A DNA stretch of 64,000 nt. It comes from Candidatus Limnocylindrales bacterium. GTDB lineage: Bacteria > Chloroflexota > Limnocylindria > Limnocylindrales > CSP1-4. Position numbers and translations under genes: made by a program. Location: assembly GCA_035688805.1 (NCBI GenBank), contig DASSMQ010000006.1, positions 15,012 through 79,011 on the forward strand, given 5' to 3'. Below are positions 21,201-34,627 of this stretch, in pieces (position 1 is the first letter of the stretch; the number at the start of each line of letters is the position of its first letter). The notes beneath the pieces were generated by a model, which ran no database searches, was not told the origin of the DNA, and worked only from the letters and a program-made list of their open reading frames with translations.

Positions 21201-21965
21201 CGGGGTGGGCTCGATCGTCGGCACCGGCGACGCAGTCGGACCGGGGGTGGCCGTCGCCGTCGGACTGGGCGACAGCGTCGGCACGGCGGTCGGCGTGGCC
21301 GTCGGCGTCGGGCTCGGGCTCGCGACGGGGGCAGGGATCGGCGGTGACGCTACATCCTGCGGTCCCGGCGTCGCCGACACGAACCAATCAGCGCCATTGG
21401 CGTTCGTGTCGATGGCGTTGCCGAGGACTCCACCAGGGCGCCGTTCGAGGCTGGATCCCGCGGGTGGCGCGGCAGCCGCCGTCCCCTCGACGAAGGCGTT
21501 GGTCGCATCACCCCAGCCGATCGCGTCGATCACCGAACCACCGACCACGCGCAGCGCGACCGACCCTCCGGTCGCGGCGAAACCGCCCGAGTACGTCGCA
21601 TCGCCGAACCCGACGTAGGAGCCAGCGCCATTGACGATGAGCGTCCGCTGTCCGGGACCAAGGATCGTCGACGTCGACCAGGTCGCCTTGCGCGTGACCG
21701 TCGAGCCGGTCGACGTCGCGTACACGACCTCGAGCCCGACCAGATCGGCAGGACCCGTACCCTGATTGGCGATCTCGACGAACTCGTCCGATGCGCTCGA
21801 GCCGCCGGTCTGGATCTCCGACACGACGAGCGTGGATACCGGCCACGCGGCCGACGCCGCGAGTGCGACGTCCCCCAGCCGTGCGCTGTGTGTGGGTCCG
21901 CTCGACAGGCAGACGGCGACGACGAGGGCGAGCGCGGTGGTCCCCGCGCGCCGGGCGCGTTGCAT
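18294..21965 (-). CDS. secreted lamin-tail-domain (LTD) cell-surface protein with three OB-like repeat domains, Pro/Thr-rich linkers and C-terminal membrane anchor/sorting-like signal
   Basis: Signal peptide, then the LTD motif VSEIQTGGSSASDEFVEIANQGTGPADLVGLEV. Three ~100-aa repeats start A..LP.G..V.I.GV.T. There are (PTVPPTPE)n linkers. The C-terminus is LLPGAGASLLGLTGVGALSVVAATLRRRHARR. This is the domain layout of ExeM/NucH-type proteins, but no nuclease domain is seen. Confidence 0.7.
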   Translation of the reverse strand: MQRARRAGTTALALVVAVCLSSGPTHSARLGDVALAASAAWPVSTLVVSEIQTGGSSASDEFVEIANQGTGPADLVGLEVVYATSTGSTVTRKATWSTSTILGPGQRTLIVNGAGSYVGFGDATYSGGFAATGGSVALRVVGGSVIDAIGWGDATNAFVEGTAAAAPPAGSSLERRPGGVLGNAIDTNANGADWFVSATPGPQDVASPPIPAPVASPSPTPTATPTAVPTLSPSPTATATPGPTASPVPTIEPTPAPMPEPTAPPSPAPTPEPTVPPTPEPTVPPTPAPTPEPTVPPTPEPTMPPTPEPTPVPTVSPAPTPTPPPTTSIVAARALPDGSVVTISGVLTTDLGALEAGRTAFVQDATGGIALYLDAVVVDPIAAGTAIHVHGEVDSRYAQRTLRITQGAVMVDGNPGVPPALGTTTGGATELLEGTRLEAQGSVTGADEALADGTAFSIDDGSGPVRVVVTPTAVAGRPVSQGTMVTAVGPLGQRDSSGTGTGGYRLYVTAPGDLQLALPTSTPVPTSTPAPSPTSAPSTTPTEDPTATPEPTPTADMTATPTVTPTPIPTPTATSAPPAEAMAIGTARTMPVGTSVAIRGVVTAEPGRVGTPALFPVQDATGALIVRLPAELPAPSRGQVVWVRGPLADPYGQTEIRPLASDLHVEGVGVLPEPAVVPPSGPDESSEAKLVRFDGLVVVRPVKSTSNDITVTIETSDGTRVRVMTDASSGLGTSAFDLWARYRVTGIAGQRASKKDQPDGYRIWARDPADVVLTVPAPTPTPSPSHAPTPTPKPKPNGSTTTGGTPTVLSIAAARRVTDRDVAIEAVVTAPATLLDSTGRRIVVQDPSGAIEVLVPKTASAPGVGSRIRAVGRIGSAYGAPRLRATSLDRLGSASIPAPLRVAGALGAAHTWRLVSIAGRVDAVHKLGDRWRAEVISGAQSLVVIGQPGAAIPSTVLGAGGTAEIVGIVRPAYPSATDRRPAVLPRGSADVHVTSVPRASDRRSGGDSGVAVTSTEGPVLSSGAPGVGRTVADADLADLEALLGATVRVGGLVVELRPTGFRLDDGTSVGSIVLTGEAAGWLGLIEPRDAINVVGRVRRDEDGQTVVVVDDPSTIVLGSGLDGLGNPTPASSPEAGTAAIGTTGERSAPEMQVAGFGADPGLLPGAGASLLGLTGVGALSVVAATLRRRHARRLVAARVATRLASIGGRARPPEGVGRTVNGG
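21019..21230. repeat. about 8 tandem degenerate 24-bp repeats (ggtcggctccggcgtgggcggcac) encoding the PTVPPTPE linker
   Basis: Read directly inside the LTD gene. Confidence 0.7.
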
Positions 21966-22116: not shown

Positions 22117-22926
22117 ATGGCGCCTGTGCGCCGTTCGACTACGATGACCGGCAACCCGCACGTCCATGCAGGACCGTCACCAGGAGACGCCGTGGCCCGC
22201 GCCAAGAGGACCGCCAGGGCAGAAGCCCGTCGCCGCTACCGAGCGGACCAGCCAGCATCGGTCGAGACGCCGCTCGCCGACGACCCGCCCGACCCTCGCC
22301 CGCGGGACCGGACCGTCGCCCGAGCGACGCCTGCGCCGACCGGTCGGCGCAGCTTCGCCGGGGCCTTCCGTGATGCGTTCCGACCGCTTGACCTGCGCGG
22401 CGACCTGCAGGCGCTGCCGCGGATCGCGCTACGAACGAACGCCCTCTGGATCCCGGTGGCGTTGACCCTGCTCAGCCTTGTGCTGTTCCTTGTCATCCGG
22501 CCGGAGGGCCGCACGGACATCCTGGCTGTCGTGACGATCTTCCTGTTCCAGTACTTCATCGTGACGCCGGCCATCGGGGGCGTGTTCATCGCCGGGTTCC
22601 TGGCTCCCCGAGCGAGCTGGCTGCTGGGCGGGATCGTCGGCCTGGTGTCGGCCGCCTGCTACTCGTTCCTGGTGATCGGCGGGTTCATGAAGGTCGCGCC
22701 GACAGCGACCAGTCAGAACCTGGTCCAGGAGGTGACGCTGGCGGCCTTCGTGATGTCGCCGCTCGTCGGGGCGGTCTTCGCCTCGGCGGCAGCGTGGTAT
22801 CGCCGGTTCCTCCAGCTGTCCAACCCGAACCGGGGACGCTCGCGACCGTCGGCGTCGGAGGCGGGACGCCGACCGGACGGTCGAACCCGGGCTGGGGGGA
22901 ACCAGAAGGCGAGCGCGCGCCGCTAG
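22117..22926 (+). CDS. hypothetical membrane protein (4-5 TM, basic cytoplasmic N-terminus)
   Basis: Internal ATG with GGAG 7 nt upstream. The upstream part of the track ORF overlaps the LTD gene. Confidence 0.4.
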   Translation: MAPVRRSTTMTGNPHVHAGPSPGDAVARAKRTARAEARRRYRADQPASVETPLADDPPDPRPRDRTVARATPAPTGRRSFAGAFRDAFRPLDLRGDLQALPRIALRTNALWIPVALTLLSLVLFLVIRPEGRTDILAVVTIFLFQYFIVTPAIGGVFIAGFLAPRASWLLGGIVGLVSAACYSFLVIGGFMKVAPTATSQNLVQEVTLAAFVMSPLVGAVFASAAAWYRRFLQLSNPNRGRSRPSASEAGRRPDGRTRAGGNQKASARR

Positions 22927-22968: not shown

Positions 22969-25900
22969 CTAGCCGAGCCGACGCATGCCGGCATGCCCGA
23001 GCTGTCGGACCCCACCAGGTTGCTCCGGCCCGCCGACCGTGGCGACCACCTCGGGGAGTGGCTTGATGTCGCGAGCGACGAGGTTGACGACCTTGCCTTC
23101 GCGCTGGAGCTCACCATCGACCAGCAGCAGGGCGTGCCGGCGGACCACGCCGCGTAACCGTTCCCAGACGTTCGGCCAGAGGGTCACATTCACCATCCCG
23201 GTCTCGTCCTCGAGCGCCAGGAAGACCGTGCCCTTGGCGGTCATCGGATGCTGCCGGGTGACGACTAGTCCTCCCACCCGGACCCGGCCCGGCCGCCGAT
23301 CGGCCAGTGACGCATTCGGCACCGCCCCGAGTCGATCGAGCGCGGTCCGGAAGAGCCCGACCACCTGCCGGCGGGCATCGACCCCCAGTACCGCATAGGC
23401 GTCACCGACCCGCTCGGACTCGGTGATCGCCGGCAGGTCGGGCGCATCGGTCGCCGGGAGTCGGAGATCCAGCGGCCGGCCCGCTGCCGCGTGCCGCTTG
23501 CCGGCGGCCCGCCCGAGGGCACGGACCGTCCGGCCATCCATCCGACCGCGTGACGCCCCGGCCACCTCGCGCAACTGCCAGAGCAGCTCCCGCCGTGGCC
23601 GGTCCAACGAGTCCATCGCGCCGCTGCGGATGAGTCGCTCGAGCACCTCCTCGGGCAGGCCCGTCCGTTCGACCACGTCGACCAGGTTCCGATACGGGCC
23701 GCGGGCCCGCTCGGCATCGAGCGCTGCCTGGTGCTGCTCCCCGATGCCCTTCACCAGGCCGAGCCCGAGCCGGACCGCCCAGCCGGCGGTCACCGCCGGC
23801 GTCCAGCGCTCCCGCGACGACGCGGAGGGAACGATGCACGCGGAGGAGACGACCGGGTCGGGCTGTGCGTCTGGGCCGATCCACTCGGTCGTCGTCGCGT
23901 AGCACGACGCGTTGACGTCCACGGGCAGCACCGCTACCCCGTGGCGCTTCGTGTCGTTGACCAGGACCTCGACCGGATAGAAGCCCATCGGCTGGGCATT
24001 GATCAGCCCGACCAGGAACTGGGCGGGGTAGAACAGCTTGAGGAAGGCCGACTCGTAGGCGGTCCGGGCGAAGGCCGCCGCGTGCGACTTGGCGAACCCG
24101 AAACTGGCGAACGCGGCGACCTGGCGAAACAGCTCCTCGGCGGTCTCGAGCTCGAGCCCGGGCTGGCGCAGCGCCCCGTCGACGAACCGGTGATGGAGCT
24201 TCTCCATCTCGCGCGATGAACGCCAGGTCCCCATCGCTCGCCGGAAGCCATCCGATTCGGCCGGGCTGAACCCGGCCACCTCGATGGCGATGCGCATGAC
24301 CTGCTCCTGGTAGAGGATCACTCCGAGCGTGTCCTTCAGCACGGGCTCCAGGCTGGGGTGCAGGTAGACGACCGGCTCGAGGCCCTGCTTGCGGCGCAGG
24401 TACGGGTGGACGGCGTTGCCCTGGATCGGCCCGGGTCGGATGATCGCCACCTCGACCACCAGGTCATCGAGCCTGCCCGGCCGCGACTTGGGGAGCGTCT
24501 GCATCTGTGCCCGGCTCTCGACCTGGAAGACGCCCACCGTGTCGGCCGCCTGGAGCATCGCGAAGACCTCGGGCACGTCCTCGGGCAGGCGGTCGAGATC
24601 GAGGCAGACCGCACAGTCATGCTCGATGAGCTGCAGGGTCTCGTCCATCGCGGCGAGCATCCCGAGACCGAGCAGGTCGAGCTTGATGAGCTTGAGCGTC
24701 TCGACGTCGCGCTTGTCGAACTGGACGACCACCCGGTCGGGCATCGTGGCCCGCTCGAGCGGGGCGAGGTCGATGAGGGGGGCGGCCGTGACGAGCATGC
24801 CGCCGCTATGGATGCTGAGGTGACGCGGGAACCCGTCGATCCGGGCGCAGAACTCGAGCCAGCGCTCCCAGTGGGAGAGGCCGACCGTCGAGCCGCCACG
24901 GGCCTGCGGCGGTGGCTCGGGCACGATGCGGGCGACCGAGCTCGCATTCGCTGGGGTCGGCGGGGGATCCCACATGATCGGCCTGCCGAGACGATCGGTC
25001 TTCCGTGGTGGCGGCAGGGTCATGCCGCTCTCCGGATCGACCGGGACGGGTCCCTGGCCCAGCGGGGGTGTGCCATAGCCCGTCCCCCGCCCGGCTCGCA
25101 GCCAGGCCACGCTCGCCGGCGTGTCGCCCGGTCCGCCCTCGTCGTCGGACGGCCCGCGGCGGATCGTCGTGACCGGTGCGAGCGGGTCCTCGCGGAACGC
25201 GGCATCACCACGCTCCGTGGCATTGCCCTCCTCGGTGGTCGATTCCCGGAGCCAGGCGAACGGACGCGGCGCGTCCGGGTCCACCGGGGTCCGCGGCTGC
25301 TTCCACGGTGGCACCTTCCCGATCAGGGGCAGCCGCTTGTTCAACTGGCCCATGCCATCGACCAGCCCGTGCGCCTCCGCCTGTTCGGCCGCGCCGGCCT
25401 CCGGTGGCAGGCCCTCCCCGGATCGTCGGAAGAACTCGGCGAACCCGCCGTCGGCCTCGAGGTCGCGCCGGACCATGACCGAGTCGTACGTCTCGAGCGC
25501 CTTCGCGACCCGATCTACCAGGGGCCGCGGGAAGCCGAGCGCATAGCCCACCTCGCGCACCGCCGAACGCGCCCGGTAGGTGACAAGGTTGCAGACCATC
25601 CCCGTGTGCTCCGGCCCGTAGCGTCGGTAGATGTACTGGATGACCTCCTCGCGCCGAGCCGAGCTGAAGTCGATGTCGACGTCCGGGTACGTCGTCCGAC
25701 CCGGATTGATGAACCGCTCGAACAGGAGGTCGTGGGCGATCGGCTCGACGCGGCTGATCCCGAGGGTGTACGACACGATCGAACTGGTCGCGCTCCCCCG
25801 ACCCTGGGCCGGGATGCCCTGCTCCCTCGCGAAGCGCATCAGGTCCCAGCAGATGAGGAAGAACTCGGCAAGGCCGGCTCGCTCGATGACGTCGAGTTCA

Positions 25901-27072
25901 TGGGCGAGCCGCTTGACCACCGCCGAGGTCAACGGGTGATAGCGCCGCCGTGCGCCGGTCCAGCACAGCTCGGAGAGATGAGAGAACGGTGTCTCACCCT
26001 CAGGGACCGGGAAGCCCGGGAACCGGTACTGCTCGAACCCGAGATCGACCGAGCACGATGCCGCGATCTCGACCGAGTTGGCGATCCCCTCGCGCCAGGC
26101 ACGGGCAGCACTCGACTCGAGCGAGTCGCCGAGCGTTGCCAGCGCCTCGCCCGATTTCAGGAAGGACTCGCCGTCCGGCCGACGCAGATCGGCCAGCGTG
26201 TCGAGCGTCCGGCCGTGTCGGATGGCGGTCAGCACGTCGTGGAACTCGCGGTCGTCGGCCGTCGCGTAATGGACGTCGTTGGTGACCACGACGGGCAGGC
26301 CGAGCTCGATCGCCAGCGCGGCCGATTCGGCGACCAGCCAGTCGTCGTCGGGCAGGAGATGGTGCGACAGCTCGATGAAGAACCCGCTCGTCGACGGGCC
26401 ATCGCCGCGGCCGAAGAGCGTCGCATAGCGCTCGGCGACAGCGCGCGCGCCGGCCCGATCGCCGACCCGCAGGCGTCGCGCGATCTCCCCCTCGCGACAA
26501 GCCGACAGCGCGACCAGGCCATCGTGATCAGCCTCGAGCAGGTCGTGCGTGATGCGCGGCATCGCCTTGGTCCCGGCCAGGTTGGCGTGCGACACCAGGC
26601 GACTCAGGCTGCGCCAGCCGGCAGGGGTCCGGGCGAGGAGCACGAGGTGTGGGCCGCGGGCCCGGTCCCCGACCCCGCGCACATCTTCCTTGACCAGGTC
26701 GCGGTGACCGGGCAGACGGGCGCGATCGGGTCGCGGCCGCACGGGCCGGCCGTCGGTGATCGTCGGCTCGACGGCCGGAGACTCGCCCTGCCGGCGGCGT
26801 GGCCGGCGGCGAGACGGGACCACCACCCGGCCGGGATCGGGCACGGCCGTATCGATCAGGTCGATCTCGGTCCCGACGACGCCAGGGAGGCCAGCCTCCT
26901 CGGCGGCACTCATGAACCGGACGGCGCCGTACAGCCCGTTCCGATCCGTCGCAGCGAGGGCGGTCAGCCCCAGGGCGACGGCCCGCTCGACCAGGTCGTC
27001 CGGCGGCGAGGCGCCATCGAGGAACGAGAAGTTGGTGTGGGCGTGGAGTTCGGCGTATGGGATGGTCGCCAC
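22969..27072 (-). CDS. dnaE2: error-prone DNA polymerase DnaE2 (ImuC) with two low-complexity insertions
   Basis: DnaE2-type N-terminus YAELHAHTNFSFLDGASPPDDL; PHP, palm (RHLSIHSGGML) and OB domains. An SOS box lies 43 bp upstream, and imuA-imuB are nearby. 1367 aa, against ~1090 typical. Confidence 0.85.
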   Translation of the reverse strand: MATIPYAELHAHTNFSFLDGASPPDDLVERAVALGLTALAATDRNGLYGAVRFMSAAEEAGLPGVVGTEIDLIDTAVPDPGRVVVPSRRRPRRRQGESPAVEPTITDGRPVRPRPDRARLPGHRDLVKEDVRGVGDRARGPHLVLLARTPAGWRSLSRLVSHANLAGTKAMPRITHDLLEADHDGLVALSACREGEIARRLRVGDRAGARAVAERYATLFGRGDGPSTSGFFIELSHHLLPDDDWLVAESAALAIELGLPVVVTNDVHYATADDREFHDVLTAIRHGRTLDTLADLRRPDGESFLKSGEALATLGDSLESSAARAWREGIANSVEIAASCSVDLGFEQYRFPGFPVPEGETPFSHLSELCWTGARRRYHPLTSAVVKRLAHELDVIERAGLAEFFLICWDLMRFAREQGIPAQGRGSATSSIVSYTLGISRVEPIAHDLLFERFINPGRTTYPDVDIDFSSARREEVIQYIYRRYGPEHTGMVCNLVTYRARSAVREVGYALGFPRPLVDRVAKALETYDSVMVRRDLEADGGFAEFFRRSGEGLPPEAGAAEQAEAHGLVDGMGQLNKRLPLIGKVPPWKQPRTPVDPDAPRPFAWLRESTTEEGNATERGDAAFREDPLAPVTTIRRGPSDDEGGPGDTPASVAWLRAGRGTGYGTPPLGQGPVPVDPESGMTLPPPRKTDRLGRPIMWDPPPTPANASSVARIVPEPPPQARGGSTVGLSHWERWLEFCARIDGFPRHLSIHSGGMLVTAAPLIDLAPLERATMPDRVVVQFDKRDVETLKLIKLDLLGLGMLAAMDETLQLIEHDCAVCLDLDRLPEDVPEVFAMLQAADTVGVFQVESRAQMQTLPKSRPGRLDDLVVEVAIIRPGPIQGNAVHPYLRRKQGLEPVVYLHPSLEPVLKDTLGVILYQEQVMRIAIEVAGFSPAESDGFRRAMGTWRSSREMEKLHHRFVDGALRQPGLELETAEELFRQVAAFASFGFAKSHAAAFARTAYESAFLKLFYPAQFLVGLINAQPMGFYPVEVLVNDTKRHGVAVLPVDVNASCYATTTEWIGPDAQPDPVVSSACIVPSASSRERWTPAVTAGWAVRLGLGLVKGIGEQHQAALDAERARGPYRNLVDVVERTGLPEEVLERLIRSGAMDSLDRPRRELLWQLREVAGASRGRMDGRTVRALGRAAGKRHAAAGRPLDLRLPATDAPDLPAITESERVGDAYAVLGVDARRQVVGLFRTALDRLGAVPNASLADRRPGRVRVGGLVVTRQHPMTAKGTVFLALEDETGMVNVTLWPNVWERLRGVVRRHALLLVDGELQREGKVVNLVARDIKPLPEVVATVGGPEQPGGVRQLGHAGMRRLG

Positions 27073-27114
27073 GGCTGCTCCGGTCGGTGGCCGGTCGGAT
27101 CGGGGCGGACAGTA

Positions 27115-27130
27115 TAGAACGCATGTTCTA
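27115..27130. promoter_or_regulatory. LexA-type SOS box TAGAACgcatGTTCTA (perfect palindrome, GAAC-N4-GTTC core)
   Basis: Read directly. It sits in the divergent region 43 bp from the dnaE2 start and 57 bp from the GH18 gene start. Confidence 0.75.
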
Positions 27131-27186
27131 TCAGGGGAAGCCCACCCATCCGCAGGACCAATGAGGGGCTGGACGACCGCAACTCG

Positions 27187-28725
27187 ATGGGCTTACCTGA
27201 CCGGGTGCGATCGACCCGTCACCGTCGCCATGCCGCCTGGTCTCGCCTCGTCCTCACCCTGACCGCCGCGGTCACGCTCTTGGCCGGGATCGCGGGCCCG
27301 ATCCCCGCTGTCCGGGCCGCGGACATCCGACCGCGGATCACCGGGATCGCGCCCCTGACCCACGAGGTCTACGGGTATCTCCCCTACTGGCGCCTGGATG
27401 CCGGCACGGTCGACCGGCTGCACTACGACCTCGTGTCGACCATCGCGTTCTTCGGCCTCGGGATCCTCGGGACGGGGGCGATCGACACGTCCTGGATCGG
27501 CTATCGGGCGTACATCGGCGACGACGCGGCGGCGGTCACCAATGCCGCCCACGACCACGGGGTTCGGGTCGTTCCCACGTTCCAGCTGTTCGATTCGGCG
27601 ACCGGCGCGCCCAAGATGACGGCGTTCCTCGGCAGTCGGTCGGCGCAGGACCGGTTCATCGGCGAGGCGCTCGACCTCATGGCCGCACGGAGCGCCGACG
27701 GTGCCGGGCTCGACTTCGAACCGGTCGGCGCCCTGGCCGCGCGCGCCTCGGAGTACGTCGCCTTCGTGGCCCGGTTCCGGGGCGCGATGAAGGCCCGCTT
27801 CCCGGGAGCCACGCTGGTGACCGCGACCTCGGCTGGGGCGACCCAGGAGCTCGTCCAGGGTGTCGCCCCATACGTCGATCATCAGATGGTGATGACCTAC
27901 AACTACCGCTCCTCCGGCTCGACGATCGCCGGCGCGGTTGCCCCGCTCGATCACGCGACGAGGAACGTCAAGAAGCACATCACCCGGATGCTGGGCTGGG
28001 TGCCGGCACGCTCCTTGCTGCTCGGCGAGCCCTATTACGGATACGACTGGCCGGTCACCAGCGCCATCCCGAACGCGACGGTCCAGTCGGACAAGTCGAC
28101 CTATGGCCCCGTCCGGAGCGTCACCTACGCCAGTGCCCGCGATTTCCTGGCCGCGCACCCGAGTGTCGTCCGGCGCTACGACTCTCTCGAGGGGAGCGCC
28201 TTCTACTGGTACTACGACAGCACGAAGCGGACCTACCGCGAAGCCTATTTCGACGATGAGCGGAGCCTCGCCGCGAAGGACGACTACGCGATCGCCACCG
28301 GCCTTGGCGGGATCGGCATCTGGACGCTCGACAACGACCGCGGCTACCGGCAGCTGTGGGACGTCCTCCGTTCGAAGTTCTACGCCCCGGTCCTGAGCAT
28401 GTCGGTCCGGGCGTCGGTCAGCGACCTGACCCGGGTATCCGGGGTCGTGTCCGTGGTCGTCCATGCCGGAGCCACGAATACGGGGACCGTGCCGCTGACC
28501 GGATCGCTGCGCTGGGCGATCCGCGACCCAGGTGGCCGAGTCGTGGCCAGCGGTCATTGGCCGACCACCGTCGTCTACCCTGGCCGGAGCACGAGTCACG
28601 CCGTCCGTGCCGCCCTCGGGCTGGCCACCTCCCTGCCAGCCGGCACCTACCACCTTCGGGTGCGGTTCGTGACGTCGACGAAGGCCTACGGGCCGCCGGA
28701 CGTGGCCTTCCGCCAGCCGTACTGA
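27187..28725 (+). CDS. secreted glycoside hydrolase family 18 (chitinase-like) protein
   Basis: Signal peptide ending AVRA-AD. GH18 catalytic-region motif DGAGLDFEP (DxxDxDxE with the middle Asp replaced by Gly). 512 aa. Confidence 0.65.
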   Translation: MGLPDRVRSTRHRRHAAWSRLVLTLTAAVTLLAGIAGPIPAVRAADIRPRITGIAPLTHEVYGYLPYWRLDAGTVDRLHYDLVSTIAFFGLGILGTGAIDTSWIGYRAYIGDDAAAVTNAAHDHGVRVVPTFQLFDSATGAPKMTAFLGSRSAQDRFIGEALDLMAARSADGAGLDFEPVGALAARASEYVAFVARFRGAMKARFPGATLVTATSAGATQELVQGVAPYVDHQMVMTYNYRSSGSTIAGAVAPLDHATRNVKKHITRMLGWVPARSLLLGEPYYGYDWPVTSAIPNATVQSDKSTYGPVRSVTYASARDFLAAHPSVVRRYDSLEGSAFYWYYDSTKRTYREAYFDDERSLAAKDDYAIATGLGGIGIWTLDNDRGYRQLWDVLRSKFYAPVLSMSVRASVSDLTRVSGVVSVVVHAGATNTGTVPLTGSLRWAIRDPGGRVVASGHWPTTVVYPGRSTSHAVRAALGLATSLPAGTYHLRVRFVTSTKAYGPPDVAFRQPY

Positions 28726-28800
28726 CGGGCCCTCCCACGACGGGACCATCGATCCCGCCCACCCGTGCAACAACTCGCCGCGCTCCGGCGTCTCTTGGCC

Positions 28801-28944
28801 ATGCACGCTCCCAGCCACCTCGATCGCCCGCTTCGACCGGCCGCTGCGGCCGCGTTCCGGACGGCCCTCGCGGTGGTGGTGGCGTCGCTGCTGATCCTCG
28901 TCGTCCTCCCCGCGATGCTCGCGGTCCAGGCGACGACGATCTAG
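28801..28944 (+). CDS. small hydrophobic peptide, 47 aa, single TM (not in ORF track)
   Basis: ATG...TAG translates MHAPSHLDRPLRPAAAAAFRTALAVVVASLLILVVLPAMLAVQATTI. Confidence 0.3.
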   Translation: MHAPSHLDRPLRPAAAAAFRTALAVVVASLLILVVLPAMLAVQATTI

Positions 28945-29050
28945 CACCAACCGACGTCTCGGCGCCTGGGGGCTCGGGACGATCGTCGGCGATCGACTGC
29001 GATAGCCGATCCGCCGACCTGCCGGATCGCTGGTGAGCGAGGATCCGGCC

Positions 29051-29085
29051 ACAGGACCCCGTCGCTGGGGGCGACGGGGTCCTGT
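29051..29085 (+). terminator. 15-bp perfect-stem hairpin (ACAGGACCCCGTCGC-tgggg-GCGACGGGGTCCTGT), followed by 14-bp palindrome GGGCCGATCGGCCC at 29093..29106
   Basis: Read directly. It lies between the first small peptide and the lipoprotein gene. Confidence 0.55.
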
Positions 29086-29130
29086 CACGTCCGGGGGCCG
29101 ATCGGCCCGCAGCCCGTAGACTCATCCGAC

Positions 29131-29670
29131 ATGACATCGCGAACCCGCCGCCTCCTGATGACGATCGTGACGATGGCACTTCTGGGCGGGTGTGGCGGCA
29201 CGTCGCCCGGCAGCCCCGGACCGTCGACTGCCGCGACGGCGACCGCGGCCGCTTCGACGCCGGCCGGGGGACCGAGCACCAGCGCATCGGCCGAACCGAC
29301 CGCCACGACCCCGCGTGCCGGTCCCGCGGTGGGTCAGACCGACACCGACTGGGGCCGGATCTGGGACGCCGTCCCGACCGATTTCCCGCGGTTCCCAGGA
29401 TCGAAGGTCGCCGATGACACGGGCGAGGCGCCGGTCAGCGCCCGGTTCGCGGTCGACGGCGGCGATCCCAAGGCGATGGCCGCCTGGATGCAGTCGGCGA
29501 TGGAGACGGCCGCGTACAGTACGGAGGGCCTCAACGGGCCCCTCGAGGATGGCAGCATGGTCCTCGAATCGGTCGGGGATGGCGGCTGTCGCATCCAGAC
29601 GACGATCGCCCCGCTCGGCGGGACGGTCTTCGTGACGATCCGGTACGGCGCCGCCTGCCCGCTGCACTGA
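29131..29670 (+). CDS. hypothetical lipoprotein
   Basis: Signal with lipobox MALLGGC; 179 aa; no recognised domain. Confidence 0.55.
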   Translation: MTSRTRRLLMTIVTMALLGGCGGTSPGSPGPSTAATATAAASTPAGGPSTSASAEPTATTPRAGPAVGQTDTDWGRIWDAVPTDFPRFPGSKVADDTGEAPVSARFAVDGGDPKAMAAWMQSAMETAAYSTEGLNGPLEDGSMVLESVGDGGCRIQTTIAPLGGTVFVTIRYGAACPLH

Positions 29671-29691
29671 CCACAGGAGCATCGATCGCGC

Positions 29692-29799
29692 ATGCAGCCC
29701 CGCTCCACCGACTTCCTTGGTGCCGCGCTCCTGGCCATCGTCCTGATCGGGCTGGTGGTGATCCTGTTCGTCGGCAATATCCCGGCGGCCACCGCCTGA
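29692..29799 (+). CDS. small hydrophobic peptide, 35 aa, single TM (not in ORF track)
   Basis: MQPRSTDFLGAALLAIVLIGLVVILFVGNIPAATA. AGGAG sits 12 nt upstream, and the ATG is 21 bp after the lipoprotein stop. Confidence 0.4.
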   Translation: MQPRSTDFLGAALLAIVLIGLVVILFVGNIPAATA

Positions 29800-29904
29800 A
29801 TCCGGTAGCTGCGCGCGGTTCTCGTCGCGCGTTGTGCTCGCCCCGCCGCTATGCTGTGGCTGGATCGACCGGGACTTCGGTCCGGACAGGGGGAACGCCG
29901 CTCC

Positions 29905-30009
29905 ATGCAATCGGCACGACCGCGTGATCTGGGTGTCCTCGTCCTCGCGATGGGGGTCCTGCTCGTTCTGTTCGTGGTGAGCCTGACGCTCGGGTCGCCG
30001 TTGCGCTGA
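29905..30009 (+). CDS. small hydrophobic peptide, 34 aa, single TM, paralog-like of the preceding one (not in ORF track)
   Basis: MQSARPRDLGVLVLAMGVLLVLFVVSLTLGSPLR shares the MQ..R.D(F/L)LG..LLA..L.GL.V.LFV pattern with the peptide at 29692..29799. Confidence 0.4.
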   Translation: MQSARPRDLGVLVLAMGVLLVLFVVSLTLGSPLR

Positions 30010-30028: not shown

Positions 30029-30286
30029 TCAGTCGTACAGACGTTCGATATGCCAGGTGCCGGCGATCCGGTCGAGATAGACGAGCGCGAGCCAGCGTTC
30101 GCCCACGACCTTCGCGTACTCGCGGGCGATCGGATCGCGCCACCACGACTCATCGACCCGCCAGCGGTTGCACACCTCGACCGCCTCGCGACGCCCGTTC
30201 CAGCGGATGGCGATGAGCCGTCCATCGCCATCGAGCTCGACGTCGATGCGCGGATGCTCGCGCAGGAGGCGGGTCATGCCGGCCAT
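30029..30286 (-). CDS. hypothetical small protein (about 82-85 aa) translationally coupled to imuB stop
   Basis: M(AGM)TRLLREHPRIDVELDGDGRLIAIRWNGRREAVEVCNRWRVDESWWRDPIAREYAKVVGERWLALVYLDRIAGTWHIERLYD. An alternative ATG at 30275..30277 overlaps the imuB TGA (ATGA). The part of the track ORF upstream of this overlaps imuB. Confidence 0.5.
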   Translation of the reverse strand: MAGMTRLLREHPRIDVELDGDGRLIAIRWNGRREAVEVCNRWRVDESWWRDPIAREYAKVVGERWLALVYLDRIAGTWHIERLYD

Positions 30287-31548
30287 CCGTCGCGCCCGTC
30301 GTCGGCGAGCCCGACTGAGCGCCACGCCCAGCGTGCTTCCGCCAGCGGCGCCTCCGGGTCGGTGATGGCGACCCGGCGGATGCGATCCTCCCCGTAGGTC
30401 AGCGCCAGCCTCGCCAGCTGCCACCCGAGTCGGGCCGTCCGGGCGGCCTGGGGCACGAACAACGGCAGTTGTTGGCCCGCCGCCGGGGTCGTGCCGCGCA
30501 GTTCCAGGTCGATCCGCTGGACCGCTGCCGGCGGCGGCTGGCGCTCGAGGCGCGCGAACAGCAGACGCTCGACGGCTTCGGGGTCCGCGGTGGGTTCCGG
30601 GAAGCGCTGCTCGACCTCCATCCGCGGCGACGTACCGACCGGCGCGAACGCAAGGTCCAGTTCCAGCGTCAGCACTGCCCGATCCGCGGCGAGCCCTCGA
30701 CCGGTGAGCTGGGCGGCCAGCGCCGCCACTAGGCGATGGAGGACGAACCGGAGCGGCTCGAGCTCCTCGACCGGGGGTTCGATGGGCAGGGCGAGGGCCA
30801 GGCGCTCGGTCGCGTGGCGAGCCCCGAACGGCTCGGTCTCCTCGCCTCGAGCACGAGCATGGAGCCGCGCGCCCTCCTCGCCGAACCGGGCGATCAGCGC
30901 GGATCGCGGGAGGACCGCCACCGCGCCGATCCGACGCAGTCCGAAGCGGGTCAGGCGTGCCCGGACATCGGGGTCGGTGGTGAGCAGCCCGGACGGACGG
31001 TCGGCCAGGAACGCCGCCTCACCCCCGGGTGGGACGATGATCGGACCGTCCGGGGTGGCGGCCAGCGCCGCGACCGAGGCGGCGAACCGGGTGCCGGCGA
31101 TCCCGGCGCGCGGTGACGGCTCCCCGGGGAGGGCGCCTCGCAGCGCCGCACCGGCCCGCTCGATCAGTCGGGGCTCGGCCCCCCACAGCGGCTCGAGCCC
31201 ATCGATCCCGACCTCGAAGAACCCGAATGAGGCCGCCGATGGGTCGCTGGTCCCGGCCAGGCTCGGGCTGGATCGCCCGAGCGCCTCGAACACGGCCTCG
31301 GCAGCTCCCCGATCCGCATCGGGATCGGGGTCGATGAAGGTCGCCTCAGGGACGAGTCGGTGGGCGCTCCCGAGCGGCATCCCGCGTCGGACGCCGAGCG
31401 CCCGAGCTGTCGGATCGGCGTCGAGGACCGGACCCGGATCCCAGGGTCGCCCGCCCAGCACGAGCGGGCCGGTCGGGAAGGGCTCGGAGCGTCGAGCCCG
31501 GGCCAGGTGGAGCGGCAGGTGCGGCACGAACAGGTGCAGACGTCGCAT
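30274..31548 (-). CDS. imuB: ImuB (Y-family polymerase-like, catalytically inactive DinB homolog)
   Basis: Internal Met MRRLHLFVPHLPLHLARAR...GVRRGMPLGSAHRLVP matches the ImuB/DinB N-terminus. The upstream 193 codons of the track ORF overlap imuA. Confidence 0.85.
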   Translation of the reverse strand: MRRLHLFVPHLPLHLARARRSEPFPTGPLVLGGRPWDPGPVLDADPTARALGVRRGMPLGSAHRLVPEATFIDPDPDADRGAAEAVFEALGRSSPSLAGTSDPSAASFGFFEVGIDGLEPLWGAEPRLIERAGAALRGALPGEPSPRAGIAGTRFAASVAALAATPDGPIIVPPGGEAAFLADRPSGLLTTDPDVRARLTRFGLRRIGAVAVLPRSALIARFGEEGARLHARARGEETEPFGARHATERLALALPIEPPVEELEPLRFVLHRLVAALAAQLTGRGLAADRAVLTLELDLAFAPVGTSPRMEVEQRFPEPTADPEAVERLLFARLERQPPPAAVQRIDLELRGTTPAAGQQLPLFVPQAARTARLGWQLARLALTYGEDRIRRVAITDPEAPLAEARWAWRSVGLADDGRDGWPA

Positions 31549-32719
31549 GGTCGGTCTCGCGATCGGGGGCCTCATGAACGGGGGCGTGGACGGGAGGCGG
31601 CGGAGCGGCCGACAGCCGGAGGTCGACCGGATCGGCCCAGCGGGTGGGTTCCTTGCTTCCCGCGTACGAGCTTGCAGGCACGGCAAGTACCACGGGCGAG
31701 GACCGCGTACGGGCCTCATCTCCGAGCGATCCCTTGCCTTCGGGGCAAGGAACGGCGGCGATGGCCCGGCTATCGGTCGACGGCACCTCATCACTTGCGA
31801 GGACCGCAAGTTCCACGACCATCTCGCCTGGCCGTGCAGCGGTACTTGCCGTGGAGGCAAGCCCTTGCGCCGCGGGCACGTCGAGCGCGTCGAACAGGAG
31901 GGCGTCGTCGGCGAGGCACGCATCGCGCTCACCGCCCTCCGCGTAGAGGATCCGCAGGATGGCTCGGCGTCCCGGCGGACCGTGGCGGTTGTGGGCGACG
32001 AGCGCCTCGGTCCGCTGCCCGACGACGTCCCGGCCGAGACGGACCCAGGACCGCCGAGCGAGCTCCAGCCGGATGCCGGTCGATTGGTCGACCGCGGTCG
32101 TGAGGCCACCGCCCGACCCGGGCGCATCGAGGATCAGGAGCAGCGTCTCCGCCCGCCGGGCGAGAGCGGCGAGTCGATGGAGGCGATCGGCGATCTTCGC
32201 CGGCGTGTCGGTCCTGGCCAGACGGCCACCGGGCAGGTCGATGACGAGCAGGTCGACCGAGCGGCCGGCCAGCAGGCTGCCGGCGATGCCCAGGCCCTCG
32301 TCCAGGCTGGCCGGGGTGATGACCACGAGCCATTCGAGCCGGATGCCGCGGCTGACGGCTTCGACCGGGTCGAAGCTGCGCGACAGGTCCAGCCACGCCA
32401 CGACCGAGCCCTGGGCCTGGGCCTCCGCGGCGACCCGCAGGCTGAGGGTCGTCCGCCCGCTCGAGCCTTCCCCCCGGATCGCGACGCTGGCCGAGGTCGG
32501 CAACCCGCCCGGTCCGAGGATCGCGTCGAGGGCGGCGAAGCCGGTGTGGATGATCCGGTCGGCGGGCCGTGGGTCGGCGGAGGGTGACGGTCCCGGCATC
32601 TCTGTGGGGACCGGTGCCGGAGCCAGGGCCAGGGCGCCGACCACGCTCGGAGCTGCAGCACCCCAGCGGGCCCGGAGGCCCGCGACGGCGGCATCCACAT
32701 CACCCCGACCGGTCGACAT
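31346..32719 (-). CDS. imuA: ImuA (RecA/SulA-like cell-division-inhibitor fold protein of the mutasome), unusually long
   Basis: IHTGFAALDAILGPGGLPTSASVAIRGEGSSGRTTLSLRVAAEAQAQG...LLVIDLPGG RecA-like core. An SOS box lies 14 bp upstream. The ORF runs 203 nt into imuB. Confidence 0.75.
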   Translation of the reverse strand: MSTGRGDVDAAVAGLRARWGAAAPSVVGALALAPAPVPTEMPGPSPSADPRPADRIIHTGFAALDAILGPGGLPTSASVAIRGEGSSGRTTLSLRVAAEAQAQGSVVAWLDLSRSFDPVEAVSRGIRLEWLVVITPASLDEGLGIAGSLLAGRSVDLLVIDLPGGRLARTDTPAKIADRLHRLAALARRAETLLLILDAPGSGGGLTTAVDQSTGIRLELARRSWVRLGRDVVGQRTEALVAHNRHGPPGRRAILRILYAEGGERDACLADDALLFDALDVPAAQGLASTASTAARPGEMVVELAVLASDEVPSTDSRAIAAVPCPEGKGSLGDEARTRSSPVVLAVPASSYAGSKEPTRWADPVDLRLSAAPPPPVHAPVHEAPDRETDHATSAPVRAAPAAPPGPGSTLRALPDRPARAGRATLGSGSGPRRRSDSSGARRPTRDAARERPPTRP

Positions 32720-32732
32720 CGGACGTCGATAG

Positions 32733-32748
32733 TAGAACAGATGTTCTA
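32733..32748. promoter_or_regulatory. LexA-type SOS box TAGAACagatGTTCTA (perfect palindrome)
   Basis: Read directly. It is 14 bp upstream of the imuA start and 60 bp upstream of the divergent response-regulator gene. Confidence 0.75.
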
Positions 32749-32807
32749 GTCAGGCAAGCCGTTTCCGTCACCCGATCGACACGAGCGATGGCTAGCCTCG
32801 GCCTACC

Positions 32808-33566
32808 ATGCTGCCGATGCCGACCTCGACCTCCGACCCCGCGGTCCCGACCGCGCCGATCCTCGTCGTCGACGACGACGCGAAGATCGTCCGGCTCGTG
32901 CGGACCTACCTCGAACGGGACGGGTTCTCGGTCGTGACCGCCGCCGACGGCCCGGCCGCGCTCGCCGCGATCGAGGCCCATGCGCCCGCCCTCGTCGTGC
33001 TGGACCTGATGCTCCCCGAACTGGACGGGCGGGCCGTCATCCGGGCCGTCCGCCGCGACGACGAGGCCGGCCGCACGCCGATCCTCGTCCTGTCCGCGCG
33101 TAGCTCGACCATCGACCGGATCGCCGGACTCGAGGATGGGGCCGACGACTACCTGCCCAAGCCGTTCTCACCCGCCGAGCTCGTGCTCCGGGTGAAGTCG
33201 ATCCTGCGCCGTGCGGCGCCGGCCGGGGCAGGCCTGGCGGATGCCCGACGACCATCGACTCCGCTGCTCCGCCACGCCGATCTCACCGTCGACCCGTCCC
33301 GCCACGAGGTCCGCCGCGGCGACGCGGCCATCGACCTCACCCGGGTCGAGTTCAAGCTGCTGTCGACGATCCTGGCGGCGGATGGCCGCGTCCTGTCGCG
33401 CGACCAGCTGCTCGACGCCGTGTACGGCCACGAGGCGGCCGACGTCCTCGACCGGACCATCGACGTGCATGTCCGCCGATTGCGCGACAAGCTCGACGAT
33501 GACCCGGAAGCGCCGCGCTATGTCCAGACCGTGCGCGGCATCGGGTATCGCGCCGCCCGGACGTGA
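32808..33566 (+). CDS. OmpR-family two-component response regulator
   Basis: ILVVDDDAKIVRL receiver domain with D...LDLMLPELDG, plus a winged-helix trans_reg_C (VQTVRGIGYR). Confidence 0.9.
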   Translation: MLPMPTSTSDPAVPTAPILVVDDDAKIVRLVRTYLERDGFSVVTAADGPAALAAIEAHAPALVVLDLMLPELDGRAVIRAVRRDDEAGRTPILVLSARSSTIDRIAGLEDGADDYLPKPFSPAELVLRVKSILRRAAPAGAGLADARRPSTPLLRHADLTVDPSRHEVRRGDAAIDLTRVEFKLLSTILAADGRVLSRDQLLDAVYGHEAADVLDRTIDVHVRRLRDKLDDDPEAPRYVQTVRGIGYRAART

Positions 33567-34627
33567 TCGGTCGAGGTATCGCCGCACGCATCGCCCTGGC
33601 GGCCATCGCGAGCGCCGCGGTCGGCCTGGTCATCCTCGCCATCGGTGTGGCCGTGGTCGGTGGCGGGGTCTTCACCGAGTTGATGATGAAGGCCGGCGAC
33701 TCGGCCGAGCACGCTCGACGGATGTACGACGACTCGGTGGTCACGGTCGTGGTCGCGGCCTCCGCCCTGGCCGTGCTGGCGAGCCTCGGTCTAGCCGTCG
33801 CCCTCGCCCGGATGCTGGCCCGGCCGCTCGACGAGATCAGTGGCGCCGCTCGACGGATCGCCGACGGTGACTACGCGGCCCGCGTCCCGCGCGAGGGGCC
33901 CGAGGAGCTGGCCAGCCTGGCCGACTCATTCAACCAGATGGCCGCTTCGCTCGAGCGTCAGGAGCAGATGCGGCGCGACTTCATCGCCAACGCAGCCCAT
34001 GAGCTACGGACGCCGTTGACCAATCTGCAGGGCTACCTCGAAGCGCTGCGCGACGGCGTCATCGTGGCCGATGCCGCGACCTACGAGTCGCTCCACGAGG
34101 AGGCCGATCGCCTCGTCCGCCTGTCGCGCTCGCTCGACGCGCTCGCGGAGGGCGACGCCGACACGAGCCCGGCGACACGCATCGAGCTCGATCTCGCGGC
34201 TGCGATCCGCTCAGCGATCGACCTCGCCGCGCCGGCGATCGAACGCGCCGGGCTGCGCCTGGAGACCGGCCTTCCCCCCTCGCTGCCGGCCCGGGCGGAT
34301 CCAGACCGGGTCGCCCAGGTCCTCGCCAACCTCCTCTCGAACGCCATCCGGTACACGGCACGCGGCGGCCTGGTCACGGTCCGCGCCGAACGGCGTCCAG
34401 CCGATGTCCTGGTCTCGGTGACGAATACCGGCGACTCGATCCCGGCCGACGACCTCGATCGGGTATTCGAGCGGTTCTACCGGGTCGAGAAGTCACGCGA
34501 TCGCGCTCGGGGAGGCGCCGGCATCGGGCTGGCCATCGTGAAGCAGCTGGTCGAATCGGGCGGCGGTCGAGTCGGCGCCGAATCGGCTGAAGGTCAGACG
34601 CGCTTCTGGTTCAGCATCCCGGCCTGA
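33563..34627 (+). CDS. sensor histidine kinase (HAMP-HisKA-HATPase)
   Basis: H-box AAHELRTPLTNLQGYLEAL; N/G boxes (LLSNAIRYT, GGAGIGLAIVKQLV); a GTGA overlap with the RR stop. Confidence 0.9.
   Translation: MIGRGIAARIALAAIASAAVGLVILAIGVAVVGGGVFTELMMKAGDSAEHARRMYDDSVVTVVVAASALAVLASLGLAVALARMLARPLDEISGAARRIADGDYAARVPREGPEELASLADSFNQMAASLERQEQMRRDFIANAAHELRTPLTNLQGYLEALRDGVIVADAATYESLHEEADRLVRLSRSLDALAEGDADTSPATRIELDLAAAIRSAIDLAAPAIERAGLRLETGLPPSLPARADPDRVAQVLANLLSNAIRYTARGGLVTVRAERRPADVLVSVTNTGDSIPADDLDRVFERFYRVEKSRDRARGGAGIGLAIVKQLVESGGGRVGAESAEGQTRFWFSIPA

Follow-up and report, generated by a model that had tools for sequence, protein, structure and literature searches.

We analysed a stretch of 64,000 nucleotides (nt) from a Candidatus Limnocylindrales bacterium (contig DASSMQ010000006.1 of assembly GCA_035688805.1, positions 15,012 to 79,011; hereafter, the window), focusing on a 16-nt element, TAGAACGCATGTTCTA, at 27115-27130, located between the minus-strand gene dnaE2, which encodes an error-prone DNA polymerase, and a plus-strand gene for a secreted glycosidase of family GH18. 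That this element is a LexA operator (SOS box) of dnaE2 is, taken alone, very likely. The fuller explanation, which we consider probable, is that it is one of two paired operators serving the separated units of a mutagenesis cassette, and that the divergent genes are transcribed from promoters of their own. Judging by its promoter region, the envelope block downstream of GH18, composed of a lipoprotein gene and three genes for small transmembrane (TM) peptides, is in all likelihood not controlled by LexA directly.

The box lies within the entire dnaE2-GH18 intergenic region of 114 bp (27073-27186), limited by the GTG start codon of dnaE2 at 27072 on the minus strand and by the first ATG of the plus-strand open reading frame (ORF) at 27187. 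Its arms, TAGAAC and GTTCTA, are perfectly complementary, and reach 7 bp when A27114 and T27131 are included. The initial annotation of this stretch, made from its letters alone, described the element as a perfect 16-bp palindrome; as the central GCAT differs from its reverse complement, ATGC, the element should instead be considered an interrupted inverted repeat. The Gram-positive-type core GAAC-N4-GTTC, claimed in the same place, is matched exactly at 27117-27128, and the offset of 43 bp to dnaE2 was reproduced (27115-27072). The offset of 57 bp to GH18 is likewise correct for the first ATG (27187-27130), but comparison with orthologues shifts the start to the GTG at 27205, 74 nt past the box. 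Symmetry alone is commonplace, with 63 perfect inverted repeats of the 6-4-6 form found in the window. The motif itself is rare: GAAC-N4-GTTC occurs only twice in these 64 kb at 71% G+C, and TAGAAC-N4-GTTCTA, allowing up to two mismatches, was observed twice when 0.09 occurrences were expected. Using a scoring matrix based on 49 orthologous sites from related loci, the box at 27115-27130 scored 28.1 bits and the second copy, at 32733-32748, scored 33.7 bits, with the next match in the window at 16.2 bits and the remainder below 7. Both boxes form AT-rich islands within this G+C-rich DNA. The third-best match, TCGTACAGACGTTCGA at 30033-30048, is probably a coding coincidence, consisting of the last codons of imuB-C (the conserved C-terminus IERLYD) at a convergent gene junction.

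The second box, TAGAACAGATGTTCTA, has the same arms as the dnaE2 box and is found 13 nt upstream of the imuA' start codon; it is conserved in 24 relatives. The genes imuA', imuB and imuB-C, as well as dnaE2, are all encoded on the minus strand, with about 3 kb of plus-strand genes between the two units and a box before each of them. Genes for a RecA-fold protein, an IMS/IMS_C protein and an ImuB C-terminal domain (ImuB-C) are all encoded near dnaE2, as expected of a mutasome cassette, and the window appears to hold a split SOS mutagenesis cassette with two candidate operators. In two relatives (L023 and L026; loci are cited by our own handles), dnaE2 directly follows imuB-C and there is a single box, at imuA' only, whereas every genome with genes between imuB-C and dnaE2 has a box of its own at dnaE2. 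As the second box is thus present only where the cassette is interrupted, dnaE2 alone accounts for it.

The gene identities proposed initially for dnaE2 and GH18 were both upheld. DnaE2 presents the PHP, Pol III alpha, finger, HHH and OB domains and matches the NCBIfam model NF004225 ('error-prone DNA polymerase') with 1047 bits, where the cut-off is 939, while GH18 matches PF00704 with 80.4 bits, where the gathering cut-off is 29.6, and carries a signal-like N-terminal segment. DnaE2 also contains an insert of about 190 amino acids (aa), at residues ~546-734 between the Pol III alpha and finger domains, which is rich in Pro and Gly and probably disordered; this region differs in length among relatives, with dnaE2 matches ranging from 3.8 to 5.0 kb. 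The imuA' product shares 30% identity with E. coli RecA over 228 aa, and its match to the NCBIfam ImuA model is weak and below the cut-off. For the imuB product, the Pol IV matches are sub-threshold and the ImuB model was matched only below its cut-off. The 85-aa protein (p85) encoded downstream of imuB has no Pfam or NCBIfam match. In an Eremiobacterota-like relative (L046), however, the ImuB ORF itself terminates in the segment homologous to p85, and in L059 this segment closes a long ORF truncated at the edge of the locus; p85 can therefore be assigned as a standalone ImuB-C domain. Such standalone proteins have been described (PMC6511836). A 2019 survey of Y-family polymerases reported them only where ImuA is lacking; the window has a separate 85-aa ImuB-C gene together with a RecA-like ImuA'. 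In L213, the ImuA' and ImuB parts were called as a single 766-aa protein. Direct BLASTP comparison of p85 with a protein bearing a faint DUF6504 match was insignificant.

Relatives of dnaE2 were sought by scanning one genome per species. The closest of these, with 60-86% identity, come only from metagenome-assembled genomes of Chloroflexota, mostly labelled Ca. Limnocylindria or Limnocylindrales, and actinobacterial DnaE2 proteins show 40-45% identity. By this measure, the organism, an uncultured soil bacterium, is a member of the Chloroflexota, class Ca. Limnocylindria, and is neither Gram-positive nor actinobacterial. Limnocylindria are an abundant, uncultured class of Chloroflexota in soil and freshwater. 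In 27 related loci, we found 49 orthologous boxes, 25 of them preceding dnaE2 and 24 preceding imuA', and the same 525 kb contain just four other GAAC-N4-GTTC sites, all weaker. Both boxes are kept across about 25 related species while the flanking sequence diverges. The proposal that a Gram-positive-type SOS box serves dnaE2 thus gains from its twin at imuA'-imuB and from the fixation of both in the promoters of these relatives.

The position of the boxes relative to conserved promoter elements is summarized by a consensus over both gene sets (26 dnaE2 and 25 imuA' sites), cTTGnnnnnn-TAGAACAnATGTTCTA-tnaT, or, written in full, cTTGnnnnnnTAGAACAnATGTTCTAtnaT, in which a -35 element, a 17-nt spacer and a -10 element can be recognized with the box inside. 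The box fills the 17-nt spacer of TTG...-N17-TAnnnT, and the -10 element begins with the final two bases of the box. This overlap is directional: nAnnnT faces dnaE2 in 25 of 26 sites and imuA' in 25 of 25, and is found in the opposite direction in 8 of 26 and 3 of 25, respectively. One relative (L007) has a dnaE2 promoter near the consensus, TTGACC-17-TATCAT. In the window, dnaE2 transcription is predicted to start near 27104, and a GGAG ribosome-binding site (27081..27078) is found 5 nt before the GTG. At imuA', the -10 element lies 9 nt from the ATG at 32719, such that the predicted transcript would be nearly leaderless. A box over the predicted core promoter is the classical LexA layout. 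Motif, promoter position and placement at SOS genes together suggest that the two boxes are LexA (SOS) operators of the Gram-positive type.

From these sequence features, their conservation and their geometry, we infer LexA binding, transcription starts and damage induction as follows. A LexA dimer would bind TAGAAC-N4-GTTCTA, and as the box fills the spacer of TTCCCC-N17-TATACT and overlaps its -10 element, bound LexA would exclude RNA polymerase. Upon DNA damage, RecA-stimulated self-cleavage of LexA would free both promoters, and the three mutasome accessory genes would then be induced together with the polymerase. The need for two boxes would have arisen because the divergent envelope block cut dnaE2 off from the imuA' promoter. 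On the other strand, GH18 would start from its own proximal promoter and the peptide-lipoprotein-peptide genes from a promoter of the extracytoplasmic function (ECF) sigma type, at a leaderless start codon.

The putative GH18 promoter was recognized once the start of the gene had been corrected. The N-termini of the orthologues (MRSTRHRRH in the window, MRSVRHTRH in L033, with others beginning at ATG-CGA) point to the GTG at 27205. When upstream regions were aligned at the box, nothing else was conserved across all orthologues, whereas an alignment anchored at the corrected start exposed conserved elements. The arrangement TGGAC[AG]-N17-TT[TA]CCT-N6-start is common to six GH18 genomes and has its sole window match here, and in 12 of 12 loci the GH18 start is preceded, at a distance of 5-9 nt, by a T-rich hexamer. 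With the -35-like hexamer 39 nt beyond the box edge, the box centre would be near -82 of GH18. No TAnnnT was found between the box and the GH18 start in the window, nor any degenerate box within 27131-27210. A GH18 gene belonging to the SOS regulon should have a box over its own promoter, and no box covers the putative one; as this promoter is itself predicted, the finding should be taken as evidence and not as proof. A further motif, GGACCAA (27155-27161, plus strand), lies 8 nt upstream of TGGAC[AG], and GGAC[CG]AA is also found in L010, L013 and L210-L212. GGAC is thus repeated 15-16 nt apart upstream of GH18, and may be a regulator site; a similar sequence, GGACGAAA, precedes the ECF-type promoter of L010, L013 and L037.

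For the envelope block, the element G[AC]AACA-N15-GCGTCT-N7-start was found with fixed spacing in 10 genomes, and is present whether GH18 or the dnaE2 box lies upstream. Promoters for ECF sigma factors are characterized by 'AAC' in the -35 and 'CGT' in the -10 element. The block promoter resembles these in having both signature triplets at an ECF-like spacing, with small membrane and lipoprotein genes downstream, but differs in that its -10 element is just 7 nt from the start codon, implying a leaderless transcript, and in that neither a cognate ECF sigma factor nor an anti-sigma factor is encoded among the window genes. A looser ECF pattern yielded two matches in the window where 1.6 were expected, such that it is conservation that carries the argument for an ECF promoter; the other match, at 22563-22586, is antisense inside a gene and was attributed to chance. 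Given this conserved element, the block can be expected to have its own promoter of a different class. Sixteen related loci, some of which lack GH18, encode the lipoprotein between imuB-C and dnaE2, and the small peptides were seen in a smaller number of them. The block was also seen in L010-L019, L021, L028, L031, L033 and L069. The lipoprotein and the three peptides have no Pfam or NCBIfam match. In the structural model of the lipoprotein, the C-terminal domain (residues 60-170) has a predicted local distance difference test score (pLDDT) above 90, and its fold matches (Flpp3, PsbP, DcrB and LpqN-type) were weak and uninformative.

Several observations weigh against the explanation given here and should be considered. 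The promoters and transcription starts were read from conservation and not mapped, and a generic sigma-70 scan, at its threshold, detected none at the dnaE2 promoter region; indeed, as generic sigma-70 and terminator scans were blank in the two intergenic regions and in the envelope block, conservation had to be used. Twelve separate loci carry GH18 (the window, L007, L010, L013, L018, L019, L033, L121 and L210-L213), which is divergent from dnaE2 in all of them, and four of four loci sampled from the GH18 side adjoin dnaE2. In 8 of the 12 loci, the GH18 start lies 73-80 nt from the box, a constancy that might stem from regulatory coupling and not from inherited synteny. Regarding the assignment to LexA, a search for lexA and recA in the window and in all dnaE2 loci (using E. 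coli LexA and RecA and two metagenomic LexA queries) matched only the RecA-like imuA', and a search for LexA homologues with context and cluster look-ups gave no match tied to a Limnocylindria assembly. Finally, exact copies of TAGAACA-N2-TGTTCTA are found upstream of TetR-family genes in two unrelated high-GC contigs (L126 2193-2208, at 13 nt, and L160 1453-1468, at 56 nt). This motif cannot therefore be regarded as specific to LexA, and sequence alone is no proof.

One alternative is a shared operator, in which one LexA site represses both directions and GH18, with the envelope block reached by read-through, belongs to the SOS regulon. We consider this unlikely, although a plausible route exists, as TATAGA at 27113-27118 on the plus strand mirrors the -10 element of dnaE2 and could give rise to a transcript with a long 5' leader into GH18. 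Apart from the invariable pairing and the near-fixed distance, a shared operator would agree with the shortness of the intergenic region, with the 4-nt gap between GH18 and the lipoprotein gene in L007, given which these two genes should be co-transcribed, at least there, and with precedents for divergent SOS-controlled wall or membrane proteins (lexA/Rv2719c, YneA and SosA). The mirrored -10 element, however, keeps its final T only in the eight sites counted above, the window has no TAnnnT from the box to GH18, and the start-proximal GH18 elements would leave the box far upstream. The peptide and lipoprotein genes, in turn, keep their ECF-type promoter even behind GH18. Moreover, most relatives, including the closest one, L012, lack GH18 and retain the box. 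Loci with the GH18-dnaE2 pairing also conserve genes on the far side of dnaE2, and as the whole neighbourhood is syntenic, the constant pairing needs no regulatory cause. The initial annotation had suggested that a single LexA site could control both dnaE2 and the GH18/lipoprotein/peptide block; this was not sustained, given the directional -10 overlap, the separate conserved promoters, the boxes kept without GH18 and the lack of a second box in L023 and L026. That GH18 is a true member of the SOS regulon, perhaps with the peptides and the lipoprotein, and is transcribed divergently from the region of the box and -10 element, is in our view decidedly improbable. If true, DNA damage would induce the error-prone polymerase together with a secreted module for wall remodelling or division arrest, a functional analogue of YneA, ChiZ or SosA made of other proteins and linked to dnaE2 where those are linked to lexA.

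The preferred explanation, in which LexA acts on the dnaE2 and imuA' promoters, can also be questioned as to the identity of the repressor. A TetR-family or other helix-turn-helix repressor might control the mutasome genes in this lineage, a possibility to which we assign a very small likelihood. It would be in line with the failure of the searches to find a lexA gene of the lineage and with the TetR-linked palindromes, and a TetR gene is present inside the block in some relatives (by the TetR_N Pfam domain in L211 and L212, and as TetR-like ORFs by translation in L010 and L013). Nevertheless, neither the window nor most relatives have this gene, and no alternative regulator is conserved beside the boxes. 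The motif corresponds to the established LexA box, as LexA motifs of the GAAC-N4-GTTC type are placed in Firmicutes and Actinobacteria, and variants of them in Chloroflexi (PMC4951493). The genes concerned form the canonical core of LexA control; ChIP-seq (chromatin immunoprecipitation sequencing) in M. tuberculosis gave LexA peaks at both Rv3395c (imuA') and Rv3370c (dnaE2) (PMC3381160). In addition, the promoters of lexA genes on other contigs contain a box of this type. A metagenome scan for TAGAACANNTGTTCTA yielded 120 loci, mostly of low-GC organisms, and also gave the Limnocylindria dnaE2 loci L121 and L171 and several boxed lexA genes. Among lexA genes on metagenomic contigs, those of L116, L095 and L206 have a TAGAA-type box between TTGACA and TATAAT, as in TTGACA-aa-TAGAACAAATGTTCTA-TAAT of L116, on contigs that are not tied to the lineage. 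In the lexA promoter of L206, two TAGAA-type boxes overlap one another downstream of TTGACA and ahead of the start. In L206 (3001-5404) and L209 (3001-6072), at 61-64% G+C, lexA is followed by a gene for an FtsK/SpoIIIE-like ATPase and small ORFs, one of which, near lexA in L206, has a faint DUF6504 match. A chance inverted repeat with no function would agree with the abundance of perfect repeats of this form in the window, but we give it practically no weight, as two same-arm copies far exceed expectation, both are AT-rich islands that occupy equivalent promoter positions at genes linked in function, and their conservation in about 25 species amid diverging flanks effectively refutes it.

A LexA operator at the dnaE2 promoter is in itself an ordinary arrangement. 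As in M. tuberculosis, in which imuA'-imuB (Rv3395c-Rv3394c) and dnaE2 (Rv3370c) are separate units with a LexA site of the GAAC-N4-GTTC type each (PMC3381160), both units have a box of their own. Here, however, the units are 3 kb apart with a divergent envelope block between them, ImuB-C is encoded by a separate 85-aa gene, the flank is TAGAAC and not TCGAAC, and the host belongs to the Chloroflexota and not to the Actinobacteria. The gene set and the promoter box also correspond to the imuA-imuB-dnaE2 LexA cassette (Erill et al. 2006), as far as it is represented by its citation in PMC4951493, and the contiguous single-box form is found in L023 and L026; relative to the cassette so represented, that of the window and of most relatives is interrupted and has its operator duplicated at dnaE2. 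The boxes share with the Gram-positive and actinobacterial SOS (Cheo) box the core, the 4-nt spacer, A at position 7, T at position 10 and the placement over the core promoter, and differ in a flank preference for T-A rather than C/T-C; binding by a Limnocylindria LexA is predicted.

The arrangement with GH18 is comparable to lexA-Rv2719c (ChiZ), B. subtilis lexA-yneA and S. aureus lexA-sosA, in each of which a secreted or membrane gene related to the wall is divergent across a short region bearing a box. In those pairs, induction of the envelope gene was shown experimentally, and Rv2719c has additional boxes of its own. In the present case, by contrast, no box covers the putative GH18 promoter, the partner is dnaE2 and not lexA, and GH18 is not a LysM protein. 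Rv2719c/ChiZ of M. tuberculosis is a cell-wall hydrolase and division suppressor under SOS control (PMC3381160), and YneA and SosA are further precedents for SOS-controlled envelope or cell-wall proteins, to be set against the initial statement that SOS-controlled envelope hydrolases are uncommon; as such proteins are already known, an SOS-controlled GH18 would still be a variation of a known theme. With respect to the enzyme itself, the nearest solved relatives are 3cz8 (B. subtilis YdhD), 4wiw, 4s3k and 4s3j (YaaH/SleL, spore-cortex lytic enzymes). Its DGAGLDFE aligns with the YdhD motif, such that the catalytic D-F-E is kept and the middle Asp of DxxDxDxE is replaced by Gly. Given this kinship and the retained D-F-E, the enzyme is by homology presumably a peptidoglycan-type GH18 and not a typical chitinase. 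Many of its homologues were named 'YaaH' by Joint Genome Institute (JGI) annotators.

In terms of significance, the analysis provides a lineage-specific operator model, TAGAAC-AnnT-GTTCTA, positioned in the spacer and over the -10 element, which can be used to predict the remaining regulon, and presents a case in which an interrupted cassette would have acquired a second operator. A full-text search of a recent comparative-genomics paper on Limnocylindria found no mention of LexA, SOS or DnaE2. A link to cell-wall remodelling is not supported by the promoter anatomy, although the strict GH18-dnaE2 pairing keeps this link testable.

Table 1. Coordinates of the boxes, putative promoters and genes discussed, in window positions (strand "." for the symmetrical boxes).
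Feature	Position	Strand	Basis and remarks
SOS (LexA-type) box TAGAAC-GCAT-GTTCTA, candidate dnaE2 operator	27115..27130	.	Motif match, lineage matrix, orthologues
Second SOS box TAGAAC-AGAT-GTTCTA, candidate operator of the imuA'-imuB-imuB-C operon	32733..32748	.	33.7 bits; conserved in 24 relatives
Predicted dnaE2 core promoter: -35 TTCCCC (27139..27134), 17-nt spacer, -10 TATACT (27116..27111)	27104..27139	-	Sequence and conservation
Predicted imuA' promoter: TTGCCT (32757..32752), 17-nt spacer, TACTAT (32734..32729)	32729..32757	-	Sequence and conservation
dnaE2, error-prone Pol III alpha, 1367 aa, GTG start, ~190-aa Pro/Gly-rich insert	22969..27072	-	Pfam, NCBIfam
imuA', RecA-fold accessory protein	31346..32719	-	PF00154 RecA, 85.6 bits; 3' boundary uncertain (ORF overlaps imuB)
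imuB, Y-family polymerase homologue	30274..31380	-	IMS and IMS_C domains; start uncertain, up to about 31590
imuB-C, standalone ImuB C-terminal domain, 85 aa (p85)	30029..30286	-	Downstream of imuB in all relatives
Secreted GH18 glycosidase, YdhD/YaaH (peptidoglycan-type) group	27187..28725	+	PF00704; probable true start GTG 27205
Putative own GH18 promoter: TGGACG (27170-27175), 17-nt spacer, TTACCT (27193-27198)	27170..27198	+	Conservation; 6 nt to GTG 27205
Putative ECF-sigma-type promoter of the envelope block, GCAACA-N15-GCGTCT	28767..28793	+	Conservation; 7 nt to ATG 28801
Envelope block: 47-aa TM peptide (28801-28944), 170-aa lipoprotein (29158-29670), 35-aa TM peptide (29692-29799), 34-aa TM peptide (29905-30009)	28801..30009	+	
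OmpR-type response regulator (32808-33566) and histidine kinase (33563-34627)	32808..34627	+	Pfam

The remaining window genes are housekeeping genes (dnaK, hrcA, lepA, eno, pgk, gap, leuS, obg, rho and comEC), with no further SOS gene among them. The response regulator and histidine kinase genes are divergent from imuA' across the second box, which lies 59 nt from the response regulator ATG, and the pair is kept beside imuA' in about 10 relatives. Downstream of dnaE2, at 18294-21965 on the minus strand, a 1223-aa protein with lamin-tail and OB-fold domains is encoded; in the same position, L210 and L211 encode a large protein with faint OB-fold matches, and L212 and L213 have large genes with no Pfam match.

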